From assembly GCA_963702005.1 (NCBI GenBank), contig OY969696.1:2912001-2976000 (forward strand): a stretch of DNA of 64,000 bases, given 5' to 3'. Source of the stretch: Candidatus Aminicenantes bacterium (GTDB lineage Bacteria; Acidobacteriota; Aminicenantia; Aminicenantales; JAFGBC01). Positions 24,835 through 63,907 of the stretch are shown here, piece by piece; the first letter of the stretch is position 1; every line of letters starts with the position of its first letter. A model generated the notes under the pieces. That model ran no database searches and was not told where the DNA came from. It saw only the letters and a program-made list of their open reading frames with translations. The position numbers and the translations under genes are program-made.

Positions 24835-24862
24835 ATTATACTATCCCGGTAGGATTTGTCAA
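24835..24862 (-). promoter_or_regulatory. Consensus promoter; leaderless for the PKD gene; -35 coincides with the end of element copy A
   Basis: TTGACA-16 nt-TATAAT-6 nt-ATG. Confidence 0.8.
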
Positions 24863-24936
24863 AACCTCGACACTCATACTAAGCCGTTTCCGTCTTAGTA
24901 TGAGTGCTACAAGGCTGCCGTCGGCGAACGGGTCAA
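24858..24936. mobile_element. TTGAC-bracketed hairpin element, copy A (79 bp)
   Basis: GTCAA...CCTCGAC-ACTCATACTAAGCCG-TTTC-CGTCTTAGTATGAGT...GTCGGCGAACGG-GTCAA. Confidence 0.85.
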
Positions 24937-25022
24937 AAAGAGCGTACAGCCGCGGACCGGTCCGCTTGATATTTCTTTCCAATTCCCATAGCATGGATTC
25001 AAACTCCGAGGAGAGGAAGACC

Positions 25023-28000
25023 ATGGGAAAAAGAACGCTTGGCCTCTTCATGATTATTTGCGTCGTATCGTTCGCGATCCAGGCCGGTTGCAAGAAAAAG
25101 CAAAAAGAGGAGGTTCGGCCGCTCGGCCCTCCCGTTGGCGACCTCCGGGTCCTATTCCAAAGCCCGCAAGGTCCGACCTCGGCCCCTCATGAAGCCGAGC
25201 GGATCGTCGTCATCTTCGACCGCGCCATGGTCCCGCTCGAGGCACTCTCGGACCTGGAGCCCTTCTCCCCGCTTCGGCTCAAGCCCGACATCCCCGGCAC
25301 GGTCCGCTGGCTGGGGACGAAAACCCTGACCTTCACCCCGGACAAGCGATTCCCCTTCGCCACGGAGATCAAAGTCACCGTTCCGCTCGGCACCCGGTCG
25401 CTGGACAACTACGCCCTGGCCGCCGACGCTTCCTGGACCTTCCAGACGATCCGGCCCCGTCTCGCGTCCCACTATCCGGAGGGCGACGGGACGGCCGTCA
25501 AACTCGACGCCAAGGTCCTCCTCGTCTTCAACCAGGCAGTGGACGCGTCCAAGGCCCGAGACTTCATCGACCTCTCCGGGCTGACGCCGGACGAAAAGAC
25601 GAAATCGCTCGGCTTCTCTCTCGACACGGCCTCGGCCGAGCTTCTTAAAACCGAGAACATCCAGGACGCCCCCTCCGATGTTCTCGTCCTTGAGCCCGAT
25701 GCGGCCCTCCAGCCCGACCTGACCTATACGGTAGACCTCAAGGAAGGCCTCCCTTCCCAAGAAGGACCTCTCGGATTGGCCGAGCCGGAAGCGTTCCGGT
25801 TCGAGACCTATAAGACCTTCGCCTGGCTCGGCCTGGGCAATGACGGCGACATTCCCCCCAACGAACCCCTAAGGCTCCAGTTCACGAATCCGGTCGGCTA
25901 CAAAGAACTCGTCGGTAAAGTCCGTTTCGAGCCCGAACTCAAGATCCCCGACTATTACCAGGAGTGGGACCAGGCAAACGCCACGCTCTGGATGACCCTT
26001 CCGCTCGAGCCGGAGACGGCCTATAAAGCCATGCTCGCGGCCGACATCAAGGACGAGTTCGGAAACGCGCTCGGCCGGGAAGTTGCGTTCGCCTTCAAGT
26101 CGGCTCCGTACACGCCCTATGTCAGCATGACGACCGGCCAGGGCATCCTGGAAGCCTACGGCGAGCTCAATTATCCCATTTACGCCGTCAATACGCCCTC
26201 CGTCCTCTTCCAGGCCGGCCGGATCGGCATGGAGGGCGTCATTCCGCTTTTGACGTCGGAAAAAGTCTTCTGGCAGGGTGAGAACTATGCCCCGAGCCCG
26301 GGACTTTTCCAGGTCTCAAGAGACCTCCAGCTCGGCCTTCCCAAGAACCAGCGCCGCCTCATCCCGCTTCCCGTCTCAGAGCTTCTTCCTGAAAAGTACG
26401 GCTTCGTCTTCATCCAGCTCGACACGGGATCCGAGGACAAGTGGAATCGCTACCCCAAGGCCTTCCTCCAGGTGACCGGACTCGGACTCACGGCCAAATT
26501 CTCCCCCGACAACGATACGATCTGGGTGACCGACCTCAAGTCGGGCGAGCCCGTCCCCGAGGCCGAAGTCGAAATCCGCGACGACGGGAACGTCGTTCGC
26601 TGCCGGGGTCGGACCGGCCCGGACGGGAAGGTCACGACGCCGGGTTGGAAGGCCCTCGGGATTAAAGTCGAGGACCGCTGGACCAAGCCTCAACAGTGGG
26701 TCTTCGCGACCAGGGGCAAGGACTCCGCCTTCCTATCCTCCGAATGGGGAGCGGGAATCGATCCCTACCGCTTCGCCATCGACTACGACTGGAATCCGCA
26801 GCCGCCCGAAGTCCAGGGCTCGATCTTCAGCGAGCGGGGGATCTACCGGGCCGGCGAGCCCGTCCATATCAAAGGGATCATCCGGACGCGGGAGAAAGGC
26901 GAATGGCGCCTCCCTAAGGTCCGGACCGTCGCCTGCGAGGTCCAGGATCCGTTCCAGAAGACGGTCAAGAAAGCCGACTGCCCGCTCGACGACTTCGGCT
27001 CGTTCAGCTTCGACCTTGAAACGGCCGAAGACGCGGCCTTAGGCTATTACCAGGTCGCCGTTATAGTCCCGAGAGAGCGGCCGTCCGGTCAGGAAACGAC
27101 CATCTCGAGTTCGTTCCGGGTCGAAGCGTTCCGGCCCGCGGAGTTCGAGGTCCACCTCCGCTCCGCACGCGACTCCTTCGTTTTCGGCGAAGACTACGAC
27201 GCCGAAGTCCGGGCGAGCTACTTGTTCGGCGGAGCCATGGCCGGACAGAAGGCTTCCTGGCGGCTCAGGCTCGATCGGACGTCATTCGCCCCGCCCGGCT
27301 TTTCGGGATACGTGTTCGGGAACGAAATCGAATGGGAAGGGGACGGCGAAGAAAGCCCCGGTTCGAGCCGGCTCCTCGGCTCGGGCGAAGCCGTCCTCGA
27401 CGCCCAAGGGACGGCCCGGGTCGAGATCCCGCTCGTCCCCGAGAAGGAGAAGGATTCGGTCCTGGCGACCCTCGAGGCCACGGTTCAGAGCCCGAGCCGC
27501 CGCTCGATATCGAACCGGATCCAGACCGTCGTTCACCGGGGCGAATACTATATCGGCCTGAAACCGGCCACGACCTTCTTAAAAAAGGGAGATCCCCTCG
27601 GCGTCGACCTCATCGCCGCGGCGCCGGCCGGAGATCTCCTCCCCGATAAAAAGATCTCCCTCAAACTCATCAAACGGGAGTGGCGTTCGGTCCGCAAGGC
27701 CGGGGTCGGAGGCCGCTTCTCCTGGATATCGGAAAAAGAGGACACGACCGTCGAGGAGAGGGCTCTCGTCACCGAGAAAGAGCCTCTGCGGACGGAGTTC
27801 AAGCCGGAGAAATCGGGGCTTTATTACCTCGAAGCGGCGGGGACGGACGGTCTCAAGAACGCAATCACGACCTCGACGTCCTTCTACGTCACGGGCGCGG
27901 ACTATGTGCCCTGGGAGAGGACCGACGACGACGCCATCGACATCGTGCCCGACCGGACGTCTTACGACCCGGGCGCCACGGCCCGCATCCTCGTCAAATC

Positions 28001-30695
28001 GCCCTACGAACGGGCCAAGGCCTTGGTGACCGTGGAGCGGGAGCTCATCCTCGAAAGCAAGGTCCTCGAGATCAAGGGCAGCACGGCCGAGATTGAAATT
28101 CCGATCAAGCCCTCCTACATTCCCAACGTCTACGTCTCGGTCCTCCTCGTCCAGGGACGGACCTCCGATTCGGCCGCGTCGGAAAACCAGGACCTCGGCA
28201 AGCCCTCCTTCAAGATCGGCTATGCGACGCTCGAGATCAACCCGGCCGAGAAACGGCTCAAGGTCGAGCTCGTTCCCGATAAGACGGCCTACAAGCCCCG
28301 AGACAAAGTCGAGGTCCGCCTCAAGGTCCGGACGAATGACGGGCTTCCCGCCCCGGCCTCGCTGACCCTCATCGCCGCCGACGCCGGCGTCCTCAACCTC
28401 ATCGGCTATCGGGTCCCCGACCCCTTCGACGAGTTCTACGGCGACAAGCCCCTCTCGGTTCAAACCTCCGAGATCCGCCTCCACGTCGTCGGCCAGCGCG
28501 CCTACGGCGAGAAGGGCGAGGAGCCCGGCGGCGGCGGGGAACAGGCCGAAAAGGCCGCGCTGCCGCTGAATGAAGTCGAACTCCGGGGCGACTTCCGGTC
28601 CACGGCCTACTGGAACCCATCGATCACGACCGATGCTAATGGCGAAGCCCGGGCCGAGTTTACCCTCCCCGACAACCTAACGACCTTCCGACTCATGGCC
28701 ATCGCCCAGACACGCGACTCGACGTTCGGCCGTGCCGAGACGGACGTCAAGGTCGCCAAGCCCCTCCTTCTCCAGGCCGCCCTGCCGCGGTTCGTCCGCG
28801 TCGGAGACTCGTTCCAGGGAGGCGTCGTCGTCCACAACATGACGGGTCAAGCCGGCGAAGCGACCGTCGAGGTCCAGGCCGAGGGAATCGTCCTCGTCGA
28901 CAAAAAAGCCGTCCAGAAAACCTCCATCCCGAGCGGCGGATCGCAGGAAATCCTCTACCGCTTCGAAGCCCGAACGGCCGGCAAGGCCGTGTTCGGTTTC
29001 CGGGCTCAAATGGGCGCTGCGAGCGATGGGCTCGAGGCCGTCCTCCCCCTCAAGCCGCCGCGCGCCCCGGAGACCGTGGCCCTGTTCGACGAAGCGGCCC
29101 AAACCGCCGAGCAGAAAATCGCGATCCCCGACTTCGCGGCCGGACCGGAAAGCCGTCTCGACGTCCAGGCCTCGGGAACGGTCCTGTCCGGTCTCGCCGG
29201 GTGCGTGGACTATCTGACGAATTACCCCTATCTTTGCCTCGAACAGCGCTTGTCCTCGATCCTCCCCTACCTCGTCGCGGGCCCGCTCATCAAGGACTAC
29301 GGGCTCTCCAAGCTCGACGCCGACGGCATCCGCGACCACGTCCGCGGCCATCTCAAGGAGTTCGTCCGCTACCAGAAGGACGACGGCGGGTTCGGGCTCT
29401 GGCCGGAATCCCGGCGGTCCTCTCCGTTCGTCTCCTGCTACGCGGCCTTCGGACTCCTGGAAGCCCGCGAGTCCGGATACGAGATCGACGGCCAAGGGCT
29501 CGACCGCGTCCGCGATTATCTCAAGAGGCTCCTCCGCCAGAAGTTCGACCCCGAGCATTATTATTTCGATGCCATGGTCTGGAACACGATCCAGGCCTTC
29601 GCCCTTTACGACCTCGCCCTTCTCGGACAGCCCGAGCCGGCCTACGCCGAAAAGCTCTTCAACGACCAAGCCCGCCTCTCGACCTTCGGGAAGACGCTCC
29701 TCCTCAAAGCCCTCTATCGCGGACGGGGCGCCTGGTCCTCCCAGGAGGCGCTGGTCCGGGACCTCATGAATAGGGTCAAGCTGACTCCCTCCCAAGCCCA
29801 TTTCGAGGACGAGGAGGGCCGCGGCGGCGCCTGGATCTATACATCAACGACGCGGACGACGGCCCTCATCCTCCAGAGCCTTCTCGAGACCGGCCGGACC
29901 CATCCGCTAGCCGCTCCCGTCGCCCGCTGGCTGGTCGAGAAGGCCAAGATGAGCTCGCGGATCTCGACTCAGGACAACTTCTATCTTTTCTACGCCCTCA
30001 ACGATTACGCTCGGCGGTTTGAATCGACGGCGTCGGCCGTCCTCTTCAAGATCCGCCTCGCCGGAAAAACAATCCTCGAAGGCTCGTTCGAAGGACGGCG
30101 GACGTCCGCGGCCGCCGCGTCCTATCCGCTCTCCGAATTTCCCAAGGGAAAAACCCTCGGCCTCGAGGTTCACAATGAAGGCGGCGGCCCCGTCCACTAC
30201 GGCGTCCGGATGACCTACACCCCGGCGACCCCGTCCTCGCCCCGCGAAGAAGGGATGGCCGTCGCCAAGTCCATCCGGAGGCTCGACGGCAAGCCGCTGA
30301 CGGATATCCCGGGCGGGACGCTCGTCCTGGTCACGGTGGAGGTCGCGCTTCCCCAGGAAGCTCACTACATAGTCATCGACGATCCGCTCCCGGGCGGGCT
30401 CGAAGCCGTCAACCGGACCTTCCTGACCGAAAGCGAGGAGGACCAGCGGCGGCTCGAGGAAGGCGGCGAGGAAGACGTAGCGAGCCCTTGGTTCGCCTTC
30501 AACCACATCGAGCTGCGCGACGACCGCGTCCTTCTCTTCGCCGACTGGCTGCCGGCCGGCGTCCACCGCCATCGTTACTTGGCCCGGGCCCTGAGCTTCG
30601 GGACATTCCGGATGCCCGGGACCAAGGCCGTGGAGATGTACGCGCCCGAGGTGTTCGGCCGGAGCGGAGAGTCGGAGGTCCGCATCGTGAAATAA
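25023..30695 (+). CDS. Bacterial alpha-2-macroglobulin lipoprotein
   Basis: Lipobox IQAG-C; ERGIYRAGE MG2 motif; thioester YPYLCLEQ; DPLPGGLE; EMYAPE. Confidence 0.95.
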   Translation: MGKRTLGLFMIICVVSFAIQAGCKKKQKEEVRPLGPPVGDLRVLFQSPQGPTSAPHEAERIVVIFDRAMVPLEALSDLEPFSPLRLKPDIPGTVRWLGTKTLTFTPDKRFPFATEIKVTVPLGTRSLDNYALAADASWTFQTIRPRLASHYPEGDGTAVKLDAKVLLVFNQAVDASKARDFIDLSGLTPDEKTKSLGFSLDTASAELLKTENIQDAPSDVLVLEPDAALQPDLTYTVDLKEGLPSQEGPLGLAEPEAFRFETYKTFAWLGLGNDGDIPPNEPLRLQFTNPVGYKELVGKVRFEPELKIPDYYQEWDQANATLWMTLPLEPETAYKAMLAADIKDEFGNALGREVAFAFKSAPYTPYVSMTTGQGILEAYGELNYPIYAVNTPSVLFQAGRIGMEGVIPLLTSEKVFWQGENYAPSPGLFQVSRDLQLGLPKNQRRLIPLPVSELLPEKYGFVFIQLDTGSEDKWNRYPKAFLQVTGLGLTAKFSPDNDTIWVTDLKSGEPVPEAEVEIRDDGNVVRCRGRTGPDGKVTTPGWKALGIKVEDRWTKPQQWVFATRGKDSAFLSSEWGAGIDPYRFAIDYDWNPQPPEVQGSIFSERGIYRAGEPVHIKGIIRTREKGEWRLPKVRTVACEVQDPFQKTVKKADCPLDDFGSFSFDLETAEDAALGYYQVAVIVPRERPSGQETTISSSFRVEAFRPAEFEVHLRSARDSFVFGEDYDAEVRASYLFGGAMAGQKASWRLRLDRTSFAPPGFSGYVFGNEIEWEGDGEESPGSSRLLGSGEAVLDAQGTARVEIPLVPEKEKDSVLATLEATVQSPSRRSISNRIQTVVHRGEYYIGLKPATTFLKKGDPLGVDLIAAAPAGDLLPDKKISLKLIKREWRSVRKAGVGGRFSWISEKEDTTVEERALVTEKEPLRTEFKPEKSGLYYLEAAGTDGLKNAITTSTSFYVTGADYVPWERTDDDAIDIVPDRTSYDPGATARILVKSPYERAKALVTVERELILESKVLEIKGSTAEIEIPIKPSYIPNVYVSVLLVQGRTSDSAASENQDLGKPSFKIGYATLEINPAEKRLKVELVPDKTAYKPRDKVEVRLKVRTNDGLPAPASLTLIAADAGVLNLIGYRVPDPFDEFYGDKPLSVQTSEIRLHVVGQRAYGEKGEEPGGGGEQAEKAALPLNEVELRGDFRSTAYWNPSITTDANGEARAEFTLPDNLTTFRLMAIAQTRDSTFGRAETDVKVAKPLLLQAALPRFVRVGDSFQGGVVVHNMTGQAGEATVEVQAEGIVLVDKKAVQKTSIPSGGSQEILYRFEARTAGKAVFGFRAQMGAASDGLEAVLPLKPPRAPETVALFDEAAQTAEQKIAIPDFAAGPESRLDVQASGTVLSGLAGCVDYLTNYPYLCLEQRLSSILPYLVAGPLIKDYGLSKLDADGIRDHVRGHLKEFVRYQKDDGGFGLWPESRRSSPFVSCYAAFGLLEARESGYEIDGQGLDRVRDYLKRLLRQKFDPEHYYFDAMVWNTIQAFALYDLALLGQPEPAYAEKLFNDQARLSTFGKTLLLKALYRGRGAWSSQEALVRDLMNRVKLTPSQAHFEDEEGRGGAWIYTSTTRTTALILQSLLETGRTHPLAAPVARWLVEKAKMSSRISTQDNFYLFYALNDYARRFESTASAVLFKIRLAGKTILEGSFEGRRTSAAAASYPLSEFPKGKTLGLEVHNEGGGPVHYGVRMTYTPATPSSPREEGMAVAKSIRRLDGKPLTDIPGGTLVLVTVEVALPQEAHYIVIDDPLPGGLEAVNRTFLTESEEDQRRLEEGGEEDVASPWFAFNHIELRDDRVLLFADWLPAGVHRHRYLARALSFGTFRMPGTKAVEMYAPEVFGRSGESEVRIVK

Positions 30696-30702
30696 TCGGG
30701 TC

Positions 30703-32970: not shown

Positions 32971-33076
32971 GCGTCAAGGAGCGCGCGCCATGAAGCGGAG
33001 AAAGGCATTGGCCTTCCTGAGCGGCCTCGCCATTCTTAAGACAAAGCTCCTGGCCCGTTCCGCAAGGAGTAATCCG

Positions 33077-33678: not shown

Positions 33679-33693
33679 GGCCCGGGCTCGGGG

Positions 33694-35695: not shown

Positions 35696-37261
35696 ATGGA
35701 ACGGATCGATCCGATCGAGCTCGAGCTCTTCAAGAACATTTTCGTGTCGATCTCGGAAGAGATGGCCGCCGTCCTGGGCCGAACGGCCCTCTCGCCCAAC
35801 ATCAAGGAACGCAAGGATTTCTCCTGCGCCCTGTTCGACGAACGGGGCGAGACCTTCGCCCAGGGGTCCCACATCCCGGTCCATCTGGGGGCGATGCCGC
35901 TTTCGGTCCAGGCGGCGCTCAAGGCCGCCCGGTTCGAGGAGGGCGACCTCGTCGTCCTCAACGATCCCTACCGGGGCGGGACTCATCTTCCCGACATCAC
36001 CTGCGTTTCCCCCGTGTTCGTGGCCGGCCGGCCCCGCTTCTTCGTCGCTAACCGCGCCCATCATTCCGACGTGGGGGGGATGACCCCAGGCTCGATGCCC
36101 CTCGCCGTCGAAATATTCCAGGAGGGCCTGATCATCCCGCCCCTCAAGCTCGTCAAACGGGGCCGGGTCGACGAGGACGTCCTCGGCCTCATCCTCGCCA
36201 ACGTCCGGACGCCCGAGGAGCGCAGGGGGGACCTCCTGGCCCAGATGGCGGCCAACGAGAAGGGAAAACGGCGCGTCGAGGAGACGGTCGTCAAGTATGG
36301 ACTGGCCAAGCTCCGCCGCACGACCGGCCTCATCAGAACATACACCGAGCGCGTTCTGCGCAAAACGCTCCGCGGGATCCCGGAGGGCACCTATACGTTC
36401 AGGGACCGCCTCGACGACGACGGGGTCGGGGGGCGGCCGATCGCCATCCGGGTCGCCGTCACGATCCGCGGAGGCCGCGCCATCGTCGATTTCACGGGGT
36501 CCTCGCCGCAGGTCACGGGGGGCGTCAACGCAAACTTCGCCGTCACGATGTCGGCGGTCCTCTACGTCTTCCGATCGCTGGTCGAGGAGGACATTCCCTT
36601 CAACACCGGACTGATGAGTCCGCTCCGCATCAAGGCCCCGCTCGGCTCGGTCGTCAACGCCGTCTTTCCGGCGGCCACGGCCGGCGGGAACGTCGAGACT
36701 TCGCAGCGGATCGTGGACGTCCTGCTGGGCGCCCTGGCCAAGGCCGTCCCGGACCGCATCCCGGCCGCCAGCTCGGGGACCATGAACAATGTCGCCTTCG
36801 GCGGCCGCGACCCGATTCGGGGAACGCCTTTCGCCTACTATGAGACGATCGGCGGCGGGATGGGGGCGAGCGTCGAGCGGGACGGCCTGGACGGAGTTCA
36901 CACTCATATGACGAACTCCCTCAACACGCCGATCGAGGCCCTCGAGGCTTATCTCCCGATCCGCATCCGCCGTTACGGACTGCGCCGGGGCTCGGGCGGC
37001 CGCGGACGACGGCGGGGCGGCGAGGGGATCGTCCGCGAATACGAATTCCTCGTCCCCTGCCGGGTGACGATCCTCTCGGACCGGAGGCGCTTTCGGCCCT
37101 ACGGCCTCCGGGGCGGGACGCCGGGGGCGCCGGGCCGGAATACGCTCATTTCGGGCGGCCGGGCCATTCCACTTCGGTCCAAGACCAACATCCAGGTCAA
37201 AGCCGGCGACCTCCTCCGGATCGAAACGCCGGGAGGGGGAGGCCTCGGGCGTCCGGGTTGA
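35696..37261 (+). CDS. Hydantoinase B / 5-oxoprolinase subunit
   Basis: SPNIKERKDFSCA, NDPYRGGTHLPD, HHSDVGG, HTHMTNS, ETPGGGG; its stop TGA lies in the TTGAC of element copy B. Confidence 0.93.
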   Translation: MERIDPIELELFKNIFVSISEEMAAVLGRTALSPNIKERKDFSCALFDERGETFAQGSHIPVHLGAMPLSVQAALKAARFEEGDLVVLNDPYRGGTHLPDITCVSPVFVAGRPRFFVANRAHHSDVGGMTPGSMPLAVEIFQEGLIIPPLKLVKRGRVDEDVLGLILANVRTPEERRGDLLAQMAANEKGKRRVEETVVKYGLAKLRRTTGLIRTYTERVLRKTLRGIPEGTYTFRDRLDDDGVGGRPIAIRVAVTIRGGRAIVDFTGSSPQVTGGVNANFAVTMSAVLYVFRSLVEEDIPFNTGLMSPLRIKAPLGSVVNAVFPAATAGGNVETSQRIVDVLLGALAKAVPDRIPAASSGTMNNVAFGGRDPIRGTPFAYYETIGGGMGASVERDGLDGVHTHMTNSLNTPIEALEAYLPIRIRRYGLRRGSGGRGRRRGGEGIVREYEFLVPCRVTILSDRRRFRPYGLRGGTPGAPGRNTLISGGRAIPLRSKTNIQVKAGDLLRIETPGGGGLGRPG

Positions 37262-37332
37262 CCCGTTCGCCGAGGCTCAGGGTTACCCCTATACAAGCCC
37301 CCGCCTGATGGCCGGGGTGTCGAGGGGTTGAC
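37258..37332. mobile_element. TTGAC-bracketed hairpin element, copy B (75 bp, opposite orientation)
   Basis: TTGAC-CCGTTCGCCGA-GGCTCAGGGTTACCCC...GTGTCGAGGGG-TTGAC. Confidence 0.8.
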
Positions 37333-37357
37333 ATTCAGGCGGCTTTAAAAATAATAT
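37328..37357 (+). promoter_or_regulatory. Promoter of the SH3-OMP gene; -35 coincides with the end of element copy B
   Basis: TTGACA-18 nt-TAATAT. Confidence 0.6.
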
Positions 37358-37409
37358 AGCTATCACGGAGGATTCTTTCCTTCGGGGAATTTGATCAAGA
37401 GGAGGAGGA

Positions 37410-41047: not shown

Positions 41048-41077
41048 TTTATAGCGGAAGGGAGGGGGGCGTGTCAA
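41048..41077 (-). promoter_or_regulatory. Promoter of the beta-barrel gene; -35 coincides with the end of element copy C
   Basis: TTGACA-18 nt-TATAAA. Confidence 0.65.
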
Positions 41078-41243
41078 ACCCTCGACACTCATACTAAGCC
41101 GTTTCCGGCTTAGTATGAGTGCTGCAAGGCTGGGCTTGGCCAGGGTTAACCCTGAGCCGCGCTTATCGTCCCCGCTTTGAAAGGCGGGGCTCCGATTTTA
41201 AGCCCCGCCTTTCAGGGCGGGGTAGCGTCGGCGAACGGGTCAA
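41073..41243. mobile_element. TTGAC-bracketed hairpin element, copy C (171 bp), with IS200/IS605-end-like hairpins
   Basis: Core 15-bp hairpin plus CAGGGTTAACCCTG, CCCCGCTTTGAAAGGCGGGG and GCCCCGCCTTTCAGGGCGGGGT modules. Confidence 0.85.
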
Positions 41244-49924: not shown

Positions 49925-49927
49925 GGA

Positions 49928-50836
49928 TCATTCTCCCGATCGGACTTCGAATCCGTACGACTCGAGCCGGGCCTTGACCCGTTGGAGGACCGCGGCGGAT
50001 GGGACCGGGAAGTCCCGCCCTTCGCGGGCTCGGATGAGCCGGCGGCGCTTATCCTGGCCGAGGCGGTGGTAGGGCAGCAGACTGATCCGGCGGACCGAGT
50101 CGAGGGAACGGAGGAACTCGGCCGTCCGGCGGATGTTGTCGTCGTCGTCGTTGACGCCCGGTATGAGGGGGATGCGGACTATGATCACGGCCCCGGAGCG
50201 GGCCAGCCGCTTGAGGTTTTCCAGTATGAGGGCGTTGGATTCCCCGGTCAGCCGGGCGTGTTTCTTGGGGTCCATGACCTTGAGGTCGAACAGAAACAGG
50301 TCGCTGAGGGCCCGGACCCGCATGAGAGTGTCGGGGGGAACGAACCCGCAGGTGTCGACGGTCGCATGGATCCCGCGCGTCCGGCATTCCCTCAGCATCT
50401 CCTCGAGGAACTCGGGCTGGGCCAGCGGCTCCCCGCCCGAGAAGGTGACGCCCCCCCGCGATTCCTCGTGGAAAACGGCGTCCTTGGCGACTTCGTCCAC
50501 GACCTCCAGGGCGGACATCCGGTGACCCGCGATTTCGATGGCCTGAGTCGGGCAGATCTCGGCGCAGGTCCCGCAGGCCTGGCACTTGTCGGGATCGACG
50601 CGGGGCCGCCCGTCCAGCTTGCGGATGGCTTTCTGGGGGCAGCCCAACAAGCACTCCCGGCAATCGCGCAGGCAGCGATCGGGGCGGACGACAAGCTCGG
50701 CGCCGGGACCCTGGCCCTCCGGATTATGGCACCAGAGACAGTGCAGAGGGCAGCCCTTGAGGAATACGGCCGTCCGGATGCCCGGTCCGTCGTGCAGGGC
50801 GTATTTCTTGATATCGAAGACGATGCCTTCGCTCAT
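49928..50836 (-). CDS. Glycyl-radical enzyme activating enzyme (radical SAM with ferredoxin insert)
   Basis: HDGPGIRT.VFLKGCPLHCLWCHNPE; two extra CxxCxxCxxxCP-type motifs; GGVTFSGGEP; LLPYH. Confidence 0.95.
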   Translation of the reverse strand: MSEGIVFDIKKYALHDGPGIRTAVFLKGCPLHCLWCHNPEGQGPGAELVVRPDRCLRDCRECLLGCPQKAIRKLDGRPRVDPDKCQACGTCAEICPTQAIEIAGHRMSALEVVDEVAKDAVFHEESRGGVTFSGGEPLAQPEFLEEMLRECRTRGIHATVDTCGFVPPDTLMRVRALSDLFLFDLKVMDPKKHARLTGESNALILENLKRLARSGAVIIVRIPLIPGVNDDDDNIRRTAEFLRSLDSVRRISLLPYHRLGQDKRRRLIRAREGRDFPVPSAAVLQRVKARLESYGFEVRSGE

Positions 50837-51552
50837 GTGTCCTTGGCCGGGGTTTTTCGGCCGCCGGCGCCGGCCGCCCCGGGGTAGTAGCGGACGATGA
50901 ACCGCTCTTGGGTCCGATAGGACCAATGGACGTCGCGGATGAACCGGGCAGCGTCTTCGAAGCGGCCCTGGCGGAGGTGATCGAGCAAGTTTTCGTGCTC
51001 GCCGCAGGACGCCTCCTCCCATTCCTTGACCCAGCTCTCGGGCCGGGGAAAATCATAGAGCCGCTTCTTAAGATTGTTGATGATCTTGACGAGGGATTCG
51101 TTGCCGCAGGCGCCGAGGTAGCTGTTATGAAACTTGAGGTTGCGGTCGTAGTAAAGATCGAAGTTGTCTTCGGCCAAGGCCTTGCGCATGCCATCGCAGA
51201 GCTTTTCCATGCTCTTGATGGCGGCGTCCTTCAGGTTATCGCGCGACAGGAGCAGGGCGGTCGCTTCCAGGGCGCCTATGATTTCATAATAATTCTTGAT
51301 ATCCTTGAACCCCAACGGATTGACGATGACGCCGCGCCGGGGAAGGATGGTGACGAAACTCTCCATCTCGAGCTGCAGCAGGGCGTCCCGGAGAGGTGTC
51401 TTGCTGACACCCAGCATGCGGGACGTCTCGTCCATGTTGATCACGGAACCGGGCAAGAGATGGCCTTTGTGCATCTCCTCTCGGATATATTCGTAGACCT
51501 GCTCTTTCAGGGACTTGATATTCAGGAGCGGCTTCTTTCCTCCCGAGTTCAT
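50833..51552 (-). CDS. GntR (FCD subfamily) transcriptional regulator
   Basis: SLKEQVY, LGVSKTPLRDAL winged HTH; N..FH and EH..L FCD motifs. Confidence 0.93.
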   Translation of the reverse strand: MNSGGKKPLLNIKSLKEQVYEYIREEMHKGHLLPGSVINMDETSRMLGVSKTPLRDALLQLEMESFVTILPRRGVIVNPLGFKDIKNYYEIIGALEATALLLSRDNLKDAAIKSMEKLCDGMRKALAEDNFDLYYDRNLKFHNSYLGACGNESLVKIINNLKKRLYDFPRPESWVKEWEEASCGEHENLLDHLRQGRFEDAARFIRDVHWSYRTQERFIVRYYPGAAGAGGRKTPAKDT

Positions 51553-51579: not shown

Positions 51580-51664
51580 AATATATCAGATATCATTGAC
51601 CTTGTCAAATAACAAGGGTTTTAGCTTCATGTTCCCTCATTTGTCCTCCGATATTAGATATCAT
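51580..51664 (-). promoter_or_regulatory. Promoter of gntR-activase-hypD with two candidate GntR operators
   Basis: TTGACA-17-TATATT (51608-51580); near-palindromic TATATCAGATATCAT (51582-51596) and GATATTAGATATCAT (51650-51664). Confidence 0.65.
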
Positions 51665-52213: not shown

Positions 52214-52296
52214 GTCAACCCTTCGACACCCATACTAAGCCGTTTTCGGCTTAGTATGATTACTGCAAGGCTGGGTAGCGTCGGCGAACGGGTCAA
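52214..52296. mobile_element. TTGAC-bracketed hairpin element, copy D (83 bp)
   Basis: GTCAACCCTTCGAC-core hairpin-TACTGCAAGGCTGGGTAGCGTCGGCGAACGG-GTCAA; supplies the stop codon of the UroD-family gene. Confidence 0.85.
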
Positions 52297-54976: not shown

Positions 54977-55015
54977 GGGCGCGCCGCCATTATAGCCCAA
55001 TTCCGGGGGCGCGCG

Positions 55016-55577: not shown

Positions 55578-55654
<77 letters not shown>

Positions 55655-55665
55655 GTGCCGAGTTT

Positions 55666-55752
55666 ATTATATCAAAACCGGACCTCTTGTCAAAAGCTTT
55701 CTTGCCATCCCCTTCCAATTCCTTGACAAGGCTTTAACGCCCTTTCTATAAT
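55666..55752. promoter_or_regulatory. Back-to-back consensus promoters for tRNA-fMet (-) and nuoJ (+)
   Basis: Minus strand TTGACA-16-TATAAT (55693-55666); plus strand TTGACA-18-TATAAT (55723-55752). Confidence 0.8.
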
Positions 55753-55765
55753 GACTCCACCTGAT

Positions 55766-56260
55766 ATGACTTCGATCCTCTTCCTGCTTCTCGCCCTGAC
55801 AAGCGTCGGCGCCGTCCTGGCTATGCTCCTGAGCCGCCGCCAGACCTACGCCGCCCTTTTTCTCGTCTTGGCTTTCGCCGCCCTGGGCGGCATCTTCGGA
55901 TTGCTCGACGCGCCCTTTCTGGCCGCCGTCCAGATCCTGATCTATGCCGGGGCCATCATGGTCCTGTTCATCTTCGTCGTCATGATGATCGACCCGCGCC
56001 GGAACCTTCGTTCCGAACCGAGGGCCTGGTTCCTCCCGGCGGCGATCATTCTTTCGGTCTCCCTCCTTGTTGAAATCTTCTGGGCGGCTCGCGGTACGCT
56101 TGTCCGGCTGGGCGAAGCCCAGGCCTGGTCGTCTTCGCCGGCCGAGATCGCCCGCCTCCTGTTCTCGAAATACCTTTATCCGTTCGAGCTCGCATCTCTC
56201 CTGATCCTGGCGGCTCTGGCGGGCGCCGTCGTCCTATCCCGGAAAAAGGACTCTCCGTGA
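55766..56260 (+). CDS. nuoJ: NADH-quinone oxidoreductase subunit J
   Basis: FLAAVQILIYAGAIMVLFIFVVMM, YPFELAS; start taken downstream of the -10 box. Confidence 0.93.
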   Translation: MTSILFLLLALTSVGAVLAMLLSRRQTYAALFLVLAFAALGGIFGLLDAPFLAAVQILIYAGAIMVLFIFVVMMIDPRRNLRSEPRAWFLPAAIILSVSLLVEIFWAARGTLVRLGEAQAWSSSPAEIARLLFSKYLYPFELASLLILAALAGAVVLSRKKDSP

Positions 56261-56559
56261 TTCCCCTGGCTTGGGTCCTCGCTTTGAGCCTCGTCCTGTT
56301 CGGGCTCGGCGCCGTAGGCTTCCTGATAAAAAAAGACCTCCTGAGCCAATTCATGTCCATCGAAGTCATGCTCAACGCCGCGGGCCTTGCCTTCGTGGGC
56401 TTCGCCGCGGCCTCCCGCGACCTCTCCGGCCAAGTCATAGTCTTCTTCATCATCACCGTGGCCGCGGCCGAGGCCGCCCTCGGTCTGTCCATCATCCTCC
56501 TCGTCTTCCGCAGGAAAAAGACGGTCCGGAGCGACGACATCCGGCTGATGAAAGGCTGA
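56257..56559 (+). CDS. nuoK: NADH-quinone oxidoreductase subunit K
   Basis: MSIEVMLNA, GQV, VAAAEAALGL. Confidence 0.95.
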   Translation: MIPLAWVLALSLVLFGLGAVGFLIKKDLLSQFMSIEVMLNAAGLAFVGFAAASRDLSGQVIVFFIITVAAAEAALGLSIILLVFRRKKTVRSDDIRLMKG

Positions 56560-56563
56560 TGGG

Positions 56564-58462: not shown

Positions 58463-58464
58463 CC

Positions 58465-60054
58465 ATGATACCGCTGTTGAGCCTGCTGACCTTCGCCCCG
58501 CTCGCGGGAGCGATCCTCATTATCCTCCTCCCCGGCCGCGCCAAGGGACTGCTCAGAACGACGGCCCTGGCGGTGAGCCTCTCCGTCTTCGCCCTGGCCG
58601 TCGTCATCTTTATCCGCTTCGACGGGATGTCCGGCGCCTACCAGTTCGTCGAGAAGAAGGCTTGGCTCGGCTACGGCATCCACTACAACGTCGGCGTCGA
58701 CGGGATCAGCCTGACTCTCATCCTCCTCACCGCCTTCATCTTTCCGCTCGCCCTCCTCTCGGCCCATTCGGCGGTCGGGGAACGCGTTAAGGAATTCCTC
58801 GTCTTCATGCTTCTCCTCGAGACGGGAATTCTGGGCGTCTTCGTCTCCCTTAACCTTTTTCTGTTCTATGTCTTCTGGGAAGCCATGCTCGTCCCCATGT
58901 ACTTCCTGATCGGGATCTGGGGAGGCGGCCGCCGCGTCTACGCGACCCTCAAGTTCGTCCTGTTCACGATGGCCGGGAGCCTCCTCATGCTCGTCGGCAT
59001 CCTCGTCTTGTTCGTCCTTCACGCTAAGGCCACCGGCGTTTACTCCTTTGCCATCGCCGACCTGGAAGGGATGGTCCTCAATCCGAGGCTCCAGACCTGG
59101 CTCTTCCTGGCCTTCGGCCTGGCCTTCGCCGTCAAAGTGCCCCTCGTCCCCTTCCATACCTGGCTCCCCGACGCCCACGTCGAGGCGCCCACGGCGGGCT
59201 CGGTCGTCCTGGCCGCCGTCCTCCTCAAGATGGGTGCCTACGGCTTCCTCCGCTTCGGCTTGCCCTTCTTCCCCGACGCGGCCCGGCGCTTCCTTCCCGC
59301 GCTCTCCATCCTCGCCCTGGCCGGGATCATTTACGGCGGACTGATGGCCCTCGTCCAGAAGGACATCAAGGCCCTGGTCGCTTATTCGAGCGTAAGCCAC
59401 ATGGGGCTGATCATGCTGGCCGCTTTTTCGCTGAGCCTCGAGGGAATGGAAGGGGCCCTTCTCCAAATGGTCAACCACGGAATCAGCACGGGCGCTCTGT
59501 TCCTTGCCGTCGGCGTCCTGTACGAACGGGCTCATACGCGGCGCATCGACGACTTCGGAGGGGTCGGCCGCCTCATGCCCATCTTCGCGGCCCTGTTTCT
59601 CGTCAGCCTGCTGTCCTCGATGGGCCTTCCCGGCCTCAACGGGTTTACCGGCGAAATCCTCTGCTTCTTCGGCGTGTTCCGGGTCAGCCGCGGGCTGGGG
59701 ATCGCCTCCGTCGCGACCGTCATCCTGGCCGCCGCCTATCTCCTCTGGATGTTCCGCCGCGTCATGCAAGGCCCCGTGACCAAAGACGCGGTCCGTTCGT
59801 TCAAGGACATCACCTTGAGGGAAGGACTGGTCCTCGTCCCGCTCGTCGTCGTCATGGTCTGGATCGGGATCGCCCCGCGCGTCTTATTGAGCAAAATGGA
59901 TGCGTCGGTCGCCGCCCTCACGGCCAAACTCAAAGCCGGCCCGACCGCCCTCTCGGCGGAGCGCACGCCCGCATCAGCCCGCCCGATCGTAACGGCCAAA
60001 GCGCTCCCGACGGCCGCCTCCGAAGCCGGCGGAAAGGAGACGCGCAGGCCGTGA
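58465..60054 (+). CDS. nuoM: NADH-quinone oxidoreductase subunit M
   Basis: FYVFWEAML, KVP..PFHTWLPDAHVEAP, LKMGAYG, AYSSVSHMG, GLPGL.GF.GE. Confidence 0.96.
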   Translation: MIPLLSLLTFAPLAGAILIILLPGRAKGLLRTTALAVSLSVFALAVVIFIRFDGMSGAYQFVEKKAWLGYGIHYNVGVDGISLTLILLTAFIFPLALLSAHSAVGERVKEFLVFMLLLETGILGVFVSLNLFLFYVFWEAMLVPMYFLIGIWGGGRRVYATLKFVLFTMAGSLLMLVGILVLFVLHAKATGVYSFAIADLEGMVLNPRLQTWLFLAFGLAFAVKVPLVPFHTWLPDAHVEAPTAGSVVLAAVLLKMGAYGFLRFGLPFFPDAARRFLPALSILALAGIIYGGLMALVQKDIKALVAYSSVSHMGLIMLAAFSLSLEGMEGALLQMVNHGISTGALFLAVGVLYERAHTRRIDDFGGVGRLMPIFAALFLVSLLSSMGLPGLNGFTGEILCFFGVFRVSRGLGIASVATVILAAAYLLWMFRRVMQGPVTKDAVRSFKDITLREGLVLVPLVVVMVWIGIAPRVLLSKMDASVAALTAKLKAGPTALSAERTPASARPIVTAKALPTAASEAGGKETRRP

Positions 60055-61478
60055 ACTCCCTTCTGGCGGCCGCCCCCTTGATCGCCGTTTCGTCGGGCGC
60101 GCTCATCGCGCTTCTGGCCGACGCGTTCATCACGAGGACGAACAAGAGCCACCTGGCCGGCCTGTCCCTGTTGTCCCTCGCCGCGGCCATGGCCTTCGCG
60201 GTCATGTCCTGGGACAAGGGTTATCATTATTTTGGGGAGACGCTTCGCCTCGACAACGTCTCGATTCTTCTGTTCGGGCTCATCCTGACCCTGGGCGCCC
60301 TCATCGTCCTCATCGGCCTGAAGTCCCATTCCTCTCCCGCCCTGGTTGAAGGAGCCTTCTATCCCCTTCTTCTCCTCGCGCTCGCCGGGCTTATGGTCAT
60401 GGTCTCGACCTCCGATCTTATCGTCGTCTTCCTCGGCCTCGAGGTCCTGTCCATCTCCTGCTATGCCCTGGCCGGACTGAGGATGTCCGATCCCAAGTCC
60501 AACGAAGCGGCCGTCAAGTATTTCCTGCTGGGAAGCTTCGCCAGCGCGTTCCTGATCTTCGGGATCGCGCTCCTCTACGGAGCGGGCCGGACGACGGATA
60601 TCGCCTCGCTGGCCTCGATCGCCCGGACCGAACGGGGCTGGCTCGCTCTGGCCGGGTGGGCGTTTGTCGTCGTCGGCTTCGGCTTCAAGATCGCCCTGGT
60701 TCCCTTTCACGGCTGGGCCCCCGATGTCTACGAAGGATCTCCGACGCCGGTCACGGCCTTTTTCTCGGTCGGGCCCAAAGCCGCCGGCCTGGCCGTCCTG
60801 ATCAGGATCGCGCTGGCCGCGTCGCCCGGGACATTGCCGGGCGCGGCCTTCATGAAGCTTCTGGCCGGACTGGCCGTCCTGACCATGATCGTCGGGAACC
60901 TGACCGCGCTGCGCCAGACGAACCTCAAAAGGCTGCTGGCCTATTCGAGCATCGCCCATTCGGGATATCTTCTCCTCGCCGTCCTGGCCCGGAATGGGAC
61001 GGGCCTTCTCTTCTACCTCGCGGCCTATCTGTTCATGAACGTCGGCGCTTTCGCGACGCTCGCGGTTTTCTGTCGGAGGGCCAATGGAGAGGAGCCGGTC
61101 GAGCTCGACGATCTGGCCGGGATCGGATTCCGCTATCCTTGGATCGGAGCCTGTATGACCGTATTCCTGCTGTCCCTGGCCGGGTTTCCGCCCACGGCCG
61201 GATTCCTGGCCAAGTTTTTCGTTTTCAGCGCGGCCGTCCGCGAGGGCCAGGTCGGGCTGGTCGTCATCGCGGCCGCCGCGACGCTCGTCTCCGTTTTTTA
61301 TTATCTAAGGATCGTCGTCATCATGTACATGGCGACGCCCAAGCGCGAGACGACCGTCGACCTGGAGAATCCCGCCCTCTATCTCGTCCTCTTTGTCTGT
61401 CTCTTGGCCGTGCTGGAGCTGGGACTCTTCCCCGGCAATTTCTTGGTCCTCGTCCGCAGGGCCGCGGGCGGGCTTTGA
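60051..61478 (+). CDS. nuoN: NADH-quinone oxidoreductase subunit N
   Basis: EAAVKYFLLG, FKIALVPFH.WAPDVYEGSP, KRLLAYSSIAH, SLAGFPP.AGF. Confidence 0.96.
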   Translation: MNSLLAAAPLIAVSSGALIALLADAFITRTNKSHLAGLSLLSLAAAMAFAVMSWDKGYHYFGETLRLDNVSILLFGLILTLGALIVLIGLKSHSSPALVEGAFYPLLLLALAGLMVMVSTSDLIVVFLGLEVLSISCYALAGLRMSDPKSNEAAVKYFLLGSFASAFLIFGIALLYGAGRTTDIASLASIARTERGWLALAGWAFVVVGFGFKIALVPFHGWAPDVYEGSPTPVTAFFSVGPKAAGLAVLIRIALAASPGTLPGAAFMKLLAGLAVLTMIVGNLTALRQTNLKRLLAYSSIAHSGYLLLAVLARNGTGLLFYLAAYLFMNVGAFATLAVFCRRANGEEPVELDDLAGIGFRYPWIGACMTVFLLSLAGFPPTAGFLAKFFVFSAAVREGQVGLVVIAAAATLVSVFYYLRIVVIMYMATPKRETTVDLENPALYLVLFVCLLAVLELGLFPGNFLVLVRRAAGGL

Positions 61479-61768
61479 GGTTCGGGCTCCTTCTTATCCG
61501 GCCCGGCGGCCCGCTTTATCATGGTCCGCATGATGTCGGCCTTCTCCTCATCCTGATGCTCGATGTACCTGAACAGGTAGTAGAGCGTGATGAAGGTCGA
61601 GATGAGGCAGAGGACGATGACGACGAACGAGAGGCGGATGACGGTCCATTCCGGGTAGGTGTCCCCCTTGAGGATGTCCTCGAGGGAAAGGACGCCGAAG
61701 AGGACCGCGAGCCCGGCCAACAGAACCAGGGCTTCGCTGATCCTAGCCCAAAGTTTAAGCTTTTTCAA
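61379..61768 (-). CDS. Small two-helix membrane hypothetical protein
   Basis: TTG start after AAAGGGG and its own promoter; two hydrophobic segments; 3' end overlaps nuoN convergently by about 100 nt. Confidence 0.55.
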   Translation of the reverse strand: MKKLKLWARISEALVLLAGLAVLFGVLSLEDILKGDTYPEWTVIRLSFVVIVLCLISTFITLYYLFRYIEHQDEEKADIMRTMIKRAAGPDKKEPEPQSPPAALRTRTKKLPGKSPSSSTAKRQTKRTR

Positions 61769-61805
61769 CGGTCTAGTCCCCTTTCTCGATTGGCTTGTAG
61801 GACCG

Positions 61806-61834
61806 ATGATAAAACACGCGGGGAGCCAAGTCAA
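61806..61834 (-). promoter_or_regulatory. Promoter; -35 coincides with the end of element copy E
   Basis: TTGACT-17 nt-TATCAT. Confidence 0.7.
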
Positions 61835-61912
61835 CCCTTCGACACTCATACTAAGCCGTTTCCGGCTTAGTATGAGTACTGCAAGGCTGGGTAGCGTCGG
61901 CGAACGGGTCAA
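61830..61912. mobile_element. TTGAC-bracketed hairpin element, copy E (83 bp)
   Basis: Perfect 15-bp stem ACTCATACTAAGCCG/CGGCTTAGTATGAGT with TTTC loop; GTCAA at both ends. Confidence 0.88.
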
Positions 61913-62613
61913 CTTCCCTCACCCCGTAGGACCGGCACCCTGCGTTCACGGAGGACCAGGATGAAGAGGAAAACGGCCAGGACCAGGGCGAAATGGCACT
62001 GGATGGAGGGGAGGACGCCCTGAGGCTCCCGGAGCAGGATCCGGACGGCCAGCGAAGGCAGAACGAATCCCAGGACACCCGCCTGAAGGTCGGCCAGATG
62101 CTTGCGGATGACCGGGTCCCGCTCGCCGGCCAAGCCGGCCGTCGTCCCGAAGATGAGGACGGCCAGGCCGGACTGGTAGAAGGCCCCGAACAGGATCTCG
62201 AAGGGCGGAGAGTGGAAGTAGCGCGCGATGACCATCTGGCAGACGGACTTGGTCACGCACCCCGGCTCGATAAAGATCCAGCCGATGATCAGGGCCGCCG
62301 CTGCGAACCAGATAAGCGGCAGAGCGATAAGTCCCCGGCGGCGGGGAGAAATGAGCTGAACCATCAGCCACAGGCCGAGCGGAGGCAGCCAGCTGATATC
62401 GAAATAGGCGAGGCGCGTGAAGAGGAGGTTGGCGGGGGCGGCGCAGACGGCGACTTCGGCGAACTGATAGCCGGCCAGCAGCAGAAAGATCAGGGCCGTC
62501 GGCATCAGGATCCGCTTCCGGCCGGGACTCGTCAGCGCGAAGGCGGCGCCCAGGAATTCGAGGATGCCCGTCACGACGGCCAACAACGGCGAGTAGCCGG
62601 ATGGGAATATCAT
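61909..62613 (-). CDS. Multi-pass (about 7 TM) membrane protein of unknown function
   Basis: About seven hydrophobic helices with several Cys; ATG overlaps the stop of the TylF gene; its stop lies in element copy E. Confidence 0.75.
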   Translation of the reverse strand: MIFPSGYSPLLAVVTGILEFLGAAFALTSPGRKRILMPTALIFLLLAGYQFAEVAVCAAPANLLFTRLAYFDISWLPPLGLWLMVQLISPRRRGLIALPLIWFAAAALIIGWIFIEPGCVTKSVCQMVIARYFHSPPFEILFGAFYQSGLAVLIFGTTAGLAGERDPVIRKHLADLQAGVLGFVLPSLAVRILLREPQGVLPSIQCHFALVLAVFLFILVLRERRVPVLRGEGS

Positions 62614-63506
62614 GGCGGTTTACGCGCCTCCTCGCTTGCGTTTTGTTCTTTTCTCAACTGAACGTAGGCCGAGGCCGAGGCCAGCGGGAGGGGCCGCATC
62701 CGGGTGCCGGAAAAATAGCGATCGATCGCCAGCCTTGCTCCCAGATCGCAGACTCCATTGTAGTCATCGAACACCACGATCCCCCCGTCCGACGTCCTTG
62801 GGATCGTAAACTCGCACGCCTCGTAGGTGCCCTGATAGAGATTAGCGTCAATATGGACAAAAGCCAAATGGAGATCGCGCGCGTTCAGTTTCAGGAACGT
62901 ATCGGAAAACAATCCGGGGAGCACTTCGACCCGGTCATCGATACCGAGCGTTTCGGCCCTTTGCCGGATGATATCCACCTGGTTCTTGACGAGCGGAAAT
63001 TCGCGCTCAAAACGAAAAGGATCATACTGCGAGGGGGCCGGCATTCCTTCGAATGTATCCAGCATTAAAACCTTCTGGGAAAGGCCGTTCATCTTGCCGA
63101 GCAACGCTATGAGGAGGGCGGTCGTCCCCCAGAATGAGCCGCATTCCATCACATCGCCCGGCGCCGATCTCGCCCGCCACCAGGCGCCGGCGAGCGCTTC
63201 CGCGCGAATCGGAGGCATCGAAAAACGCGCCCCGGTCTCGGCCAGACGGGCCAAGGCGGCCTGGAAATTCGGAGTCGGCGGAAAATTCGCATAGGTCCGC
63301 GTGCGGAACTCCCTCAAAGGATTGATCAGGACCATCGGATCCGACACGGGCAGCGACAGCGAGCGGCGCTGCCGGAAATAGCGAGGGACGGCCCACAGGT
63401 AGTATTTGAGGCCGAGCTGGACGGAGCGCATTATTTTTTTTGGGATGGAGGAGGCGTAATAGGCATCCTCGAAAACGTCGGCCACGTCCTTTGCCCGTTG
63501 CCTCAA
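62610..63506 (-). CDS. TylF/MycF-family SAM-dependent O-methyltransferase
   Basis: GDVMECGSFWG, DTFEGMP, GLFSDT, FVHIDANLY, GGIVVFDDY, GAR.AID. Confidence 0.88.
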   Translation of the reverse strand: MRQRAKDVADVFEDAYYASSIPKKIMRSVQLGLKYYLWAVPRYFRQRRSLSLPVSDPMVLINPLREFRTRTYANFPPTPNFQAALARLAETGARFSMPPIRAEALAGAWWRARSAPGDVMECGSFWGTTALLIALLGKMNGLSQKVLMLDTFEGMPAPSQYDPFRFEREFPLVKNQVDIIRQRAETLGIDDRVEVLPGLFSDTFLKLNARDLHLAFVHIDANLYQGTYEACEFTIPRTSDGGIVVFDDYNGVCDLGARLAIDRYFSGTRMRPLPLASASAYVQLRKEQNASEEARKPP

Positions 63507-63622
63507 AGTCCCGCCCGGATCATGTTATTGGCGCTGAAGGCAGTCTTCTTTTCGAGTTCTTTTCTCGTCTCCCGCTTTTCGGCCCGCCCTGATTCATGAA
63601 GATTGATCGCGAGGCGAGACTT

Positions 63623-63651
63623 ACTCTATCGCCGGGGAGGATCGATGTCAA
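63623..63651 (-). promoter_or_regulatory. Promoter of the TylF gene; -35 coincides with the end of element copy F
   Basis: TTGACA-17 nt-TAGAGT. Confidence 0.65.
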
Positions 63652-63907
63652 CCCCTCGACTCCCCGGCCGAAGCTCCACGGACTAATGCTCATTGGAGCG
63701 CCAGTACTCATGAACCGTTTCCGGTTCATGAGTGCATGAATGCCAGGGCTTGTTCGGGGTTAACCCTGAGCCCACTCAGCCCCATCCCGTCCAAAAGGGC
63801 TGAGTACAAAAGTGTCGCTTCTCGTCCCCGCCTTTCAGGGCGGCACCCACGAACCGTTCCCGGTTCATGAGTACTGCAAGGCTGGGTGGCGTCAGCGAAC
63901 GGGTCAA
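63647..63907. mobile_element. TTGAC-bracketed hairpin element, copy F (261 bp, compound)
   Basis: Same ends as the other copies; two variant cores (ACTCATGAACCG-TTTC-CGGTTCATGAGT), GGGTTAACCCTGAG and CCGCCTTTCAGGGCGG modules. Confidence 0.85.

Follow-up and report, generated by a model that had tools for sequence, protein, structure and literature searches.

The window analysed here, a 64,000-nt stretch of contig OY969696.1 from a Candidatus Aminicenantes bacterium (positions 2,912,001 to 2,976,000), carries six intergenic copies of a short repeat, numbered c1 to c6, which are 75-261 nt long, span 39 kb and consist of invariant ends around a mosaic, mostly hairpin-rich interior. Five copies lie on the minus strand and one (c2) on the plus strand, beside genes for hydantoinase B, a URO-D-like protein and several secreted or membrane-type proteins (Table 1). 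Protein homologues at 82% identity or lower carry names that point to Candidatus Aminicenantes. Reading the sequence at each interval confirmed the six copies, their shared ends and the terminal TTGAC repeats that an initial annotation of the window had described. All statistics given below refer to these six copies in this one 64-kb window and to a gene list curated with codon-position GC content and Pfam.

Read in one orientation, the family has the inner end TTGAC-CCGTTCGC(C/T)GA(C/G)G and the outer end GTCGA(G/A)G(G/T)(G/T)-TTGAC. The 17-nt inner-end motif gives six matches at 0-1 mismatch; allowing up to three mismatches raises this to nine, against 0.46 expected and a count reached in 0 of 100 shuffles, and the three additional matches (three mismatches each, inside listed open reading frames (ORFs) by position) were treated as chance. 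The 14-nt outer-end motif has five matches at up to two mismatches (0.57 expected), the outer end of c1, with three mismatches, being recognised only through alignment. Aligning the six copies produces 36 invariant columns, mostly at the two ends, with TTGACCCGTTCGC.GA.G and GTCGA.G..TTGAC invariant in 6/6; the invariant stretches measure about 20 nt (inner end) and about 14 nt (outer end), and the ends are far more conserved than the interior. This conservation across all copies speaks for recognition of the ends. TTGAC itself forms a 5-nt direct repeat at the two ends of every copy, the DNA directly outside is unrelated, and the orientation relative to the asymmetric TTGAC is identical in all six (two-sided chance about 0.03). 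A duplication longer than TTGAC was considered and set aside: the sequence common to inner flank and outer end is 7 nt long in c1, 8 nt in c2, 6 nt in c5 and 5 nt in c3, c4 and c6, which by a rough estimate is not beyond chance. GC skew revealed no replication direction in the window.

The interior is built from a few interchangeable modules that are combined differently in each copy and that, in the window, are confined to TTGAC-bounded copies, as seen for the 36-nt hairpin (4/4 strand-distinct matches), the GC-rich hairpin (3/3) and the GGGTTAACCC module (5/5 matches at three loci). Between its inner end and the common hairpin, c3 holds about 88 nt of extra modules, namely two CCCCGCC..GGCGGGG hairpins and a GGGTTAACCC module. 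The tag before the 36-nt hairpin is GTAG in c1 and GCAG in c3, c4, c5 and c6, and c2 has neither tag and lacks the common hairpin. In the c6 variant both arms differ from the common hairpin with self-complementarity kept. Compared with shuffled sequence, single strands of c1, c3, c4, c5 and c6 form much more stable folds (z -4.2 to -10.4; c1 DNA fold -19.9 kcal/mol, z -5.6), and for four of these five hairpin-rich copies none of 200 shuffles folds as well. In c1, c4 and c5 a single central hairpin is closed by pairing of the ends, in c4 and c5 through ACCC.TTCG with CGA.GGGT, a terminal pairing that, read from the end sequences, covers 8 of 12 positions when TTGAC is counted in. The 96% identity between c4 and c5 suggests recent spread.

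No ORF is confined to any copy. Rfam returned no family at gathering scores over the whole window and, at E up to 10 over 61700-64000, two chance-level matches only, neither overlapping features of the element. An intrinsic terminator (GC-rich stem followed by a T run) was also considered; none of the 56 listed terminator-like sites falls inside an element, leaving a canonical intrinsic terminator unsupported. We conclude that these mosaic hairpin repeats, bounded by TTGAC, form a genuine family that had not been catalogued before.

The outer TTGAC(A/T) is followed after 16-18 nt by a -10 box in five of the six copies, each box lying in flanking DNA. All five boxes, already listed in the initial annotation, could be read directly, and four are strict TANNNT. 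The five are all the copies that face a gene start, c4 facing the 3' end of a convergent gene. Strict TANNNT boxes at this spacing occur in 4/6 copies compared with 3.2% of random intergenic positions (P(>=4 of 6) = 1.5e-5); judged from the sequence, the outer ends sit on real -35 positions. Both strands of the window hold 124 TTGAC sites, of which 112 lie outside the elements (103 genic, 9 intergenic or at gene edges), and a TANNNT at 16-18 nt accompanies 5/9 of the unoccupied intergenic sites, including perfect-consensus promoters beside tRNA-Met and nuo genes, versus 1/103 of the genic ones. Because of this disparity an intergenic TTGAC can be taken as usually being a -35 box, and any element that inserts at TTGAC but does not persist in coding DNA will look promoter-targeted. 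The rate of promoter-type sites indeed does not differ between elements (5/6) and unoccupied intergenic TTGAC (5/9; Fisher p = 0.58). The proposal that the element targets -35 boxes is therefore not needed to account for its distribution: 'promoter-targeting' is better read as TTGAC-specific, hence found at promoters, and the association is explained by the motif together with purifying selection rather than by promoter recognition. The same base-rate caution applies to any TTGAC-specific element, which will appear promoter-targeting.

Some further features concern the promoters of the window. The ATG of the PKD-domain gene at 24828 lies 6 nt past the TATAAT downstream of c1, with no Shine-Dalgarno sequence (24826-24862, minus strand), an arrangement that suggests a leaderless mRNA. 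The unique flanks of c1 and c2 (24828-24845 and 37350-37365) share ATAATATAGC(C/T)AT, in both cases 17 nt from TTGACA with unrelated spacers; the match may mark a conserved start region, or it may have arisen by chance beyond what the -10 consensus imposes. Within 55578-55752, a tRNA-Met gene (CAT anticodon) lies downstream of a 12/12 consensus promoter on the minus strand, and the TATAAT of a second 12/12 promoter on the plus strand overlaps the listed ATG of the nuoJ-like gene. A likely operator is the palindrome TTGACCTTGTCAA at 51596-51612, which overlaps the -35 box of a GntR/FCD regulator gene in the divergent region upstream of that gene.

At the opposite end, the inner TTGAC contains the TGA stop codon of the upstream gene in 4/6 copies, these being all four copies whose inner end faces a gene 3' end. 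The four ORFs, which end there as the initial annotation had noted, encode hydantoinase B, a URO-D-like protein, a 234-aa protein and a 31-aa C-terminal fragment. The names given to the first two stood (hydantoinase B matches Pfam at 6.5e-211 with a full domain up to the last residue but one), and those given to the others found no confirmation: the supposed 7TM protein has no Pfam match and homologues that are unnamed membrane or hypothetical proteins, and the supposed nitroreductase has 31 aa in the window and no Pfam match. The context T-TGA-C is found at 4 of the 29 TGA stops in the curated gene list, all four at elements.

Table 1. Copies of the TTGAC-bounded repeat, their modules and the adjoining genes and signals, in window positions.
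Feature	Position	Strand	Description
c1	24858..24936	-	79 nt: inner end, GTAG-tagged hairpin with 16-bp stem, outer end
c1, gene context			divergent: PKD-domain protein (-), alpha-2-macroglobulin (+)
c1, outer TTGACA	24835..24862	-	16 nt, then TATAAT; 12/12 consensus
c2	37258..37332	+	75 nt, sole + copy; family ends, interior with GCTCAGGGTTA(A/C)CCC module
c2, gene context			tandem: hydantoinase B, then SH3/OMP gene
TGA of hydantoinase B	37259..37261	+	within inner TTGAC of c2
c2, outer TTGACA	37328..37357	+	16 nt to AATAAT or 18 nt to TAATAT
Start of SH3/OMP gene downstream of c2	ATG 37410	+	GGAGGAGG just before ATG
c3	41073..41243	-	171 nt, c5-like; fold z -10.4
c3, gene context			divergent: OMP (-), HD-GYP response regulator (+)
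c3, outer TTGACA	41048..41077	-	18 nt, then TATAAA
c4	52214..52296	-	83 nt; outer side without -10 box
c4, gene context			convergent: RbsD/FucU (+, ends 52196), URO-D-like gene (-)
TGA of URO-D-like gene	52293..52295	-	within inner TTGAC of c4
c5	61830..61912	-	83 nt; fold z -5.2
c5, gene context			tandem: 234-aa membrane protein, then 129-aa ORF with hydrophobic stretches
TGA of 234-aa membrane protein	61909..61911	-	within inner TTGAC of c5
c5, outer TTGACT	61806..61834	-	17 nt, then TATCAT
Start of 129-aa ORF downstream of c5	TTG 61768	-	GAAAGGGGA just before TTG
c6	63647..63907	-	261 nt; family ends, variant hairpins and other modules
c6, variant hairpins	63702-63735 and 63843-63876		inverted pair
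c6, gene context			tandem: ORF running off window end, then TylF-type methyltransferase gene
TGA of ORF crossing window end	63904..63906	-	31-aa C-terminal fragment; TGA within inner TTGAC of c6
c6, outer TTGACA	63623..63651	-	17 nt, then TAGAGT
36-nt perfect hairpin			c1, c3, c4, c5; variant twice, inverted, in c6
GC-rich CCCCGCC..GGCGGGG hairpin			c3, c6
GCTCAGGGTTA(A/C)CCC module			c2, c3, c6

In order to account for this combination of features, we favour, on balance and with modest confidence, the reading that the six copies are one family of small non-coding hairpin repeats, of the REP/BIME or MITE kind, which spread through insertions at the pentanucleotide TTGAC, always in one orientation. 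Insertion would leave TTGAC on both sides, either as a 5-bp target duplication made by a target-specific transposase or, alternatively, as a host TTGAC on one side and an element ending in an identical TTGAC on the other, as in single-strand HUH transposition; as TTGAC is invariant in 6/6, a target duplication is indistinguishable from a motif borne by the element. The simplest pre-insertion state is a site with a single TTGAC, given the direct repeats with unrelated flanks, the outer TTGAC at -35 and the uniform orientation. Since TTGAC is the core of the -35 hexamer and also contains TGA, insertion there would rebuild both signals, and for that reason copies would survive mainly at promoters and gene ends. 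An inserted element would give the upstream transcript a stable 3'-terminal hairpin, immediately before the next promoter, where by analogy with REP/BIME and Correia elements it is plausible that the hairpin could stabilise or partly insulate transcripts.

Several results weigh against this reading. No empty site and no copy outside the window was found in species-representative genomes or in plasmid and phage collections, and mobility and the single-TTGAC pre-insertion state are accordingly what we infer rather than observe. The genome scan used a subfamily-specific pattern that covers the region from the hairpin to the inner end and fixes neither TTGAC; among the species-representative genomes, which evidently do not include the source genome, it returned 29 loci, all single matches in unrelated taxa and attributable to chance, none of them followed by TCAA and none preceded by the hairpin of the family. 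Plasmid and phage collections searched in distant mode gave no match for c3, c5 or c6, and the 30-aa translation of c5 had no match among 1.84 billion representative proteins, which shows only that no such ORF is recorded. No transposase, RAYT, TnpB or integrase domain occurs in the 55 window ORFs scanned with Pfam, a set for which the previously reported absence of tnpA and RAYT holds. Furthermore, c2 folds only weakly (z -1.0).

The remaining difficulties come from the stop codons. Against four T-TGA-C stops observed, 0.45-0.89 would be expected (P(>=4) = 0.001-0.012), and among the 15 tolerated TTGAC sites those overlapping a stop are occupied in 4/4 cases compared with 2/11 of the others (Fisher p = 0.011). 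The link to stop codons is stronger than chance, beyond what target availability explains, and this excess over expectation makes a simple model of insertion into pre-existing sites insufficient. The initial annotation had held that insertion preserves both signals, which is supported for the promoter, the outer TTGAC lying at -35 in all five copies that face a gene start, and is doubtful for the stop of the URO-D-like gene. In that family the C-terminal residue is Tyr in 111 of the 120 homologues listed, among them relatives at 88-76% identity; the window protein, which matches one database cluster exactly, has Tyr-Gly-Leu before its TGA and so ends two codons past the conserved Tyr, from which it follows that this TTGAC stop is not ancestral. 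Either the gene lost its original stop and came to end at a nearby TTGAC that the element later entered, or the end of the gene was remodelled by the insertion. For hydantoinase B, the tail after the GGGGxG motif measures 0-30 residues among the 119 of 120 listed homologues in which the motif was found; three relatives at 82-85% identity extend 7-8 residues beyond the window protein, whose end is matched to within one residue by the relatives at 90% and 86%. Tail length likewise varies among the listed homologues of the 234-aa protein, which include relatives at 97% and 84% identity, and because of this variability the C-terminal comparisons are uninformative for both proteins.

A more specific version of the proposal, which we regard as tentative and rather doubtful, takes the excess of TTGAC-type stops as a real coupling to gene ends: an orientation-specific element, driven by a single-strand HUH transposase or site-specific recombinase that recognises the -35 core TTGAC, would be drawn to, or kept at, TTGAC sites that overlap a TGA stop codon. 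Its hairpin would come to lie exactly between two transcription units, a dedicated 'safe-site' strategy that would regenerate both stop and promoter and exploit the two most frequent punctuation signals of bacterial genomes.

The excess of TTGAC-type stops would follow naturally if the element brought the stop with it. Both TTGAC would then belong to the element, providing an outward -35 box at one end and a ready-made TGA at the other, and copies would be retained for supplying these to neighbouring genes, in the manner of Correia elements and many insertion sequences that form hybrid promoters. The two extra residues of the URO-D-like protein look as if its stop were new, the last sense codon ends in T in 4/4 of the genes concerned, where T makes up 9.6% of third codon positions, and TTGAC overlaps in part with the imperfect terminal inverted repeat (ACCC.TTCG / CGA.GGGT). 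We nevertheless consider this unlikely. Were landing in intergenic DNA arbitrary, a -10 box with the right spacing would be met at about 3% of positions and not at four or five of six, and it is difficult to believe that almost every young copy was selected for creating a promoter, given that c4 and c5 are 96% identical. When both TTGAC are deleted with the element, by eye, a stop follows within 3-4 codons in two of the four upstream ORFs, and the other two stay open for more than 20 codons; hydantoinase B, for its part, keeps the complete Pfam domain up to the penultimate residue of the protein.

Alternatively, the repeats might be a non-mobile, conserved cis-acting site, for instance for a DNA- or RNA-binding protein, upstream of the -35 box of co-regulated envelope genes. 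Conservation is much higher at the ends than in the interior, and four of the five downstream genes are of secreted or membrane type (a PKD-domain protein, two OMP beta-barrel proteins and the 129-aa ORF with hydrophobic stretches), the fifth being a methyltransferase gene followed by one for a membrane protein. We judge this improbable, as c4 faces no promoter, the length range of 75-261 nt would shift the upstream site by up to 186 bp, and the second TTGAC, the overlap with stop codons and the near identity of c4 and c5 over their whole length are left unexplained. Finally, integron-like (attC-like) or other site-specific recombination sites, with TTGAC as crossover core marking the 3' ends of cassettes, would fit the paired conserved ends, the asymmetric internal loop, the central part variable in sequence and length, the start of the element on the preceding stop codon in 4/6 copies and the two-gene unit flanked in direct orientation by c6 and c5, yet they are highly improbable here, since the ends are direct repeats and not an inverse core pair, GTTGAC(C/A/T) departs from the core at position 6, a G precedes the inner TTGAC in c2 and c5 alone, no integrase is among the scanned ORFs, and housekeeping operons (nuoJ-N, hydantoinase A/B) lie between copies, with c2 inverted.

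Among known systems, the closest are REP-type palindromes, IS200/IS605 derivatives, Correia elements and other MITEs, and insertion sequences that form hybrid promoters. REPs are described as extragenic and mostly downstream of ORFs, between unidirectional or convergent genes (PMC3733652; PMC3333891; PMC2817692), and as palindromes of 20-40 nt in which one end bears an unpaired GTAG (or CGTC) tag (PMC3733652). The present repeats resemble REP, BIME and REPIN elements in being short extragenic palindromes assembled as a mosaic of few motifs with a tetranucleotide before the stem, and in such a location relative to genes, and the two inverted hairpins of c6 recall a REPIN. They differ in their fixed 5-nt direct-repeat border, which is not described for REPs, in a tag that is GCAG in most copies, in the lack of a RAYT gene among the 55 ORFs, and in that the conserved part is the pair of ends and not the hairpin, which c2 does without.

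IS200/IS605 elements have separate subterminal hairpins at their left and right ends and no terminal inverted repeats. The present family is like their derivatives in that a fixed pentanucleotide abuts the inner end in 6/6 copies, in one orientation and with no other duplication, insertion itself being inferred. Unlike them, c1, c4 and c5 have one central hairpin and mutually paired ends, the same pentanucleotide stands at both ends, and neither tnpA nor tnpB is present among the scanned ORFs; these three copies, together with the one copy that lacks the common hairpin, speak against the suggested IS200/IS605 origin. The motif of ISDra2 is TTGAT, and TTGAC has been predicted as the motif of a related TnpB (PMC12415229). 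The TTGAC of our repeats is thus one base from that of ISDra2. In the literature searched, mostly at the level of titles and abstracts, no bacterial element is described as inserting at TTGAC or at -35 boxes.

Correia elements (CREE) duplicate TA and hold promoter parts within their own repeat. Like the CREE of Neisseria and other bacterial MITEs, the present repeats are small intergenic non-autonomous elements with imperfect terminal inverted repeats; unlike CREE, their promoter half is the flanking or duplicated TTGAC, they occur in one orientation relative to it and they have no Rfam similarity. According to one report (PMC2649163), promoters can arise where the ends of Correia elements meet neighbouring DNA, and RNase III binds the hairpins in their transcripts. 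The small size, non-coding nature and multiple copies typical of MITEs are all found here (75-261 nt, six copies in 39 kb). A DDE-type MITE with symmetric ends would be expected in both orientations at an asymmetric target, unlike the single orientation relative to TTGAC seen in 6/6 copies. Some insertion sequences create hybrid promoters through an outward -35 box in their terminal repeat; these promoters are new, and selection favours them for activating a gene. Our elements share with such insertion sequences a TTGAC(A/T) at the very end and a flanking -10 box at 16-18 nt, and differ in a geometry that suggests a resident promoter kept rather than created. Integron attC sites carry an inverse core/core consensus RYYYAAC ... 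GTTRRRY at their two ends and form arrays of same-direction cassettes beside an integrase, unlike the present arrangement with its inverted c2 and no integrase in the 55 ORFs.

Other parts of the window show further features. The first 24.8 kb (1-24857) hold no copy despite several intergenic regions, and none lies near the genes for a glycyl-radical enzyme (PFL-like, 787 aa) and its radical-SAM activase (47561-51022, minus strand). The S-adenosyl-L-homocysteine hydrolase gene (9214-10477, minus strand) is split over the overlapping ORFs 9347-10477 and 9214-9729, which lie in different frames and each match part of the Pfam domains; this is a frameshift, reflecting either a pseudogene or an assembly error. 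On the same strand, beside a ZnuA-type binding protein, a single ORF at 18472-20070 contains both a truncated ABC ATPase domain (positions 1-72 of the 137-position profile) and an ABC-3 permease domain; it probably represents two genes fused by a frameshift. The 129-aa ORF downstream of c5 (61379-61768, minus strand) has no Pfam match and runs into the convergent nuoN-like gene (60051-61478), its final 100 nt lying over the 3' end of that gene.

The repeat also bears on gene prediction, as it can create false N-terminal extensions in gene calls. An ATG at 24900, within c1, opens the 1931-aa alpha-2-macroglobulin ORF (24900-30695, plus strand), for which a real start near 25002 is more likely. 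In metagenome bins like that of this Candidatus Aminicenantes bacterium the repeat would aid annotation by marking gene ends and real promoters of the sigma-70 type. If empty sites carry a single TTGAC, the repeat would clearly exemplify, in nature, an insertion motif that doubles as a gene-expression signal, and the element could then increase in number in a compact genome while leaving promoters and reading frames intact.

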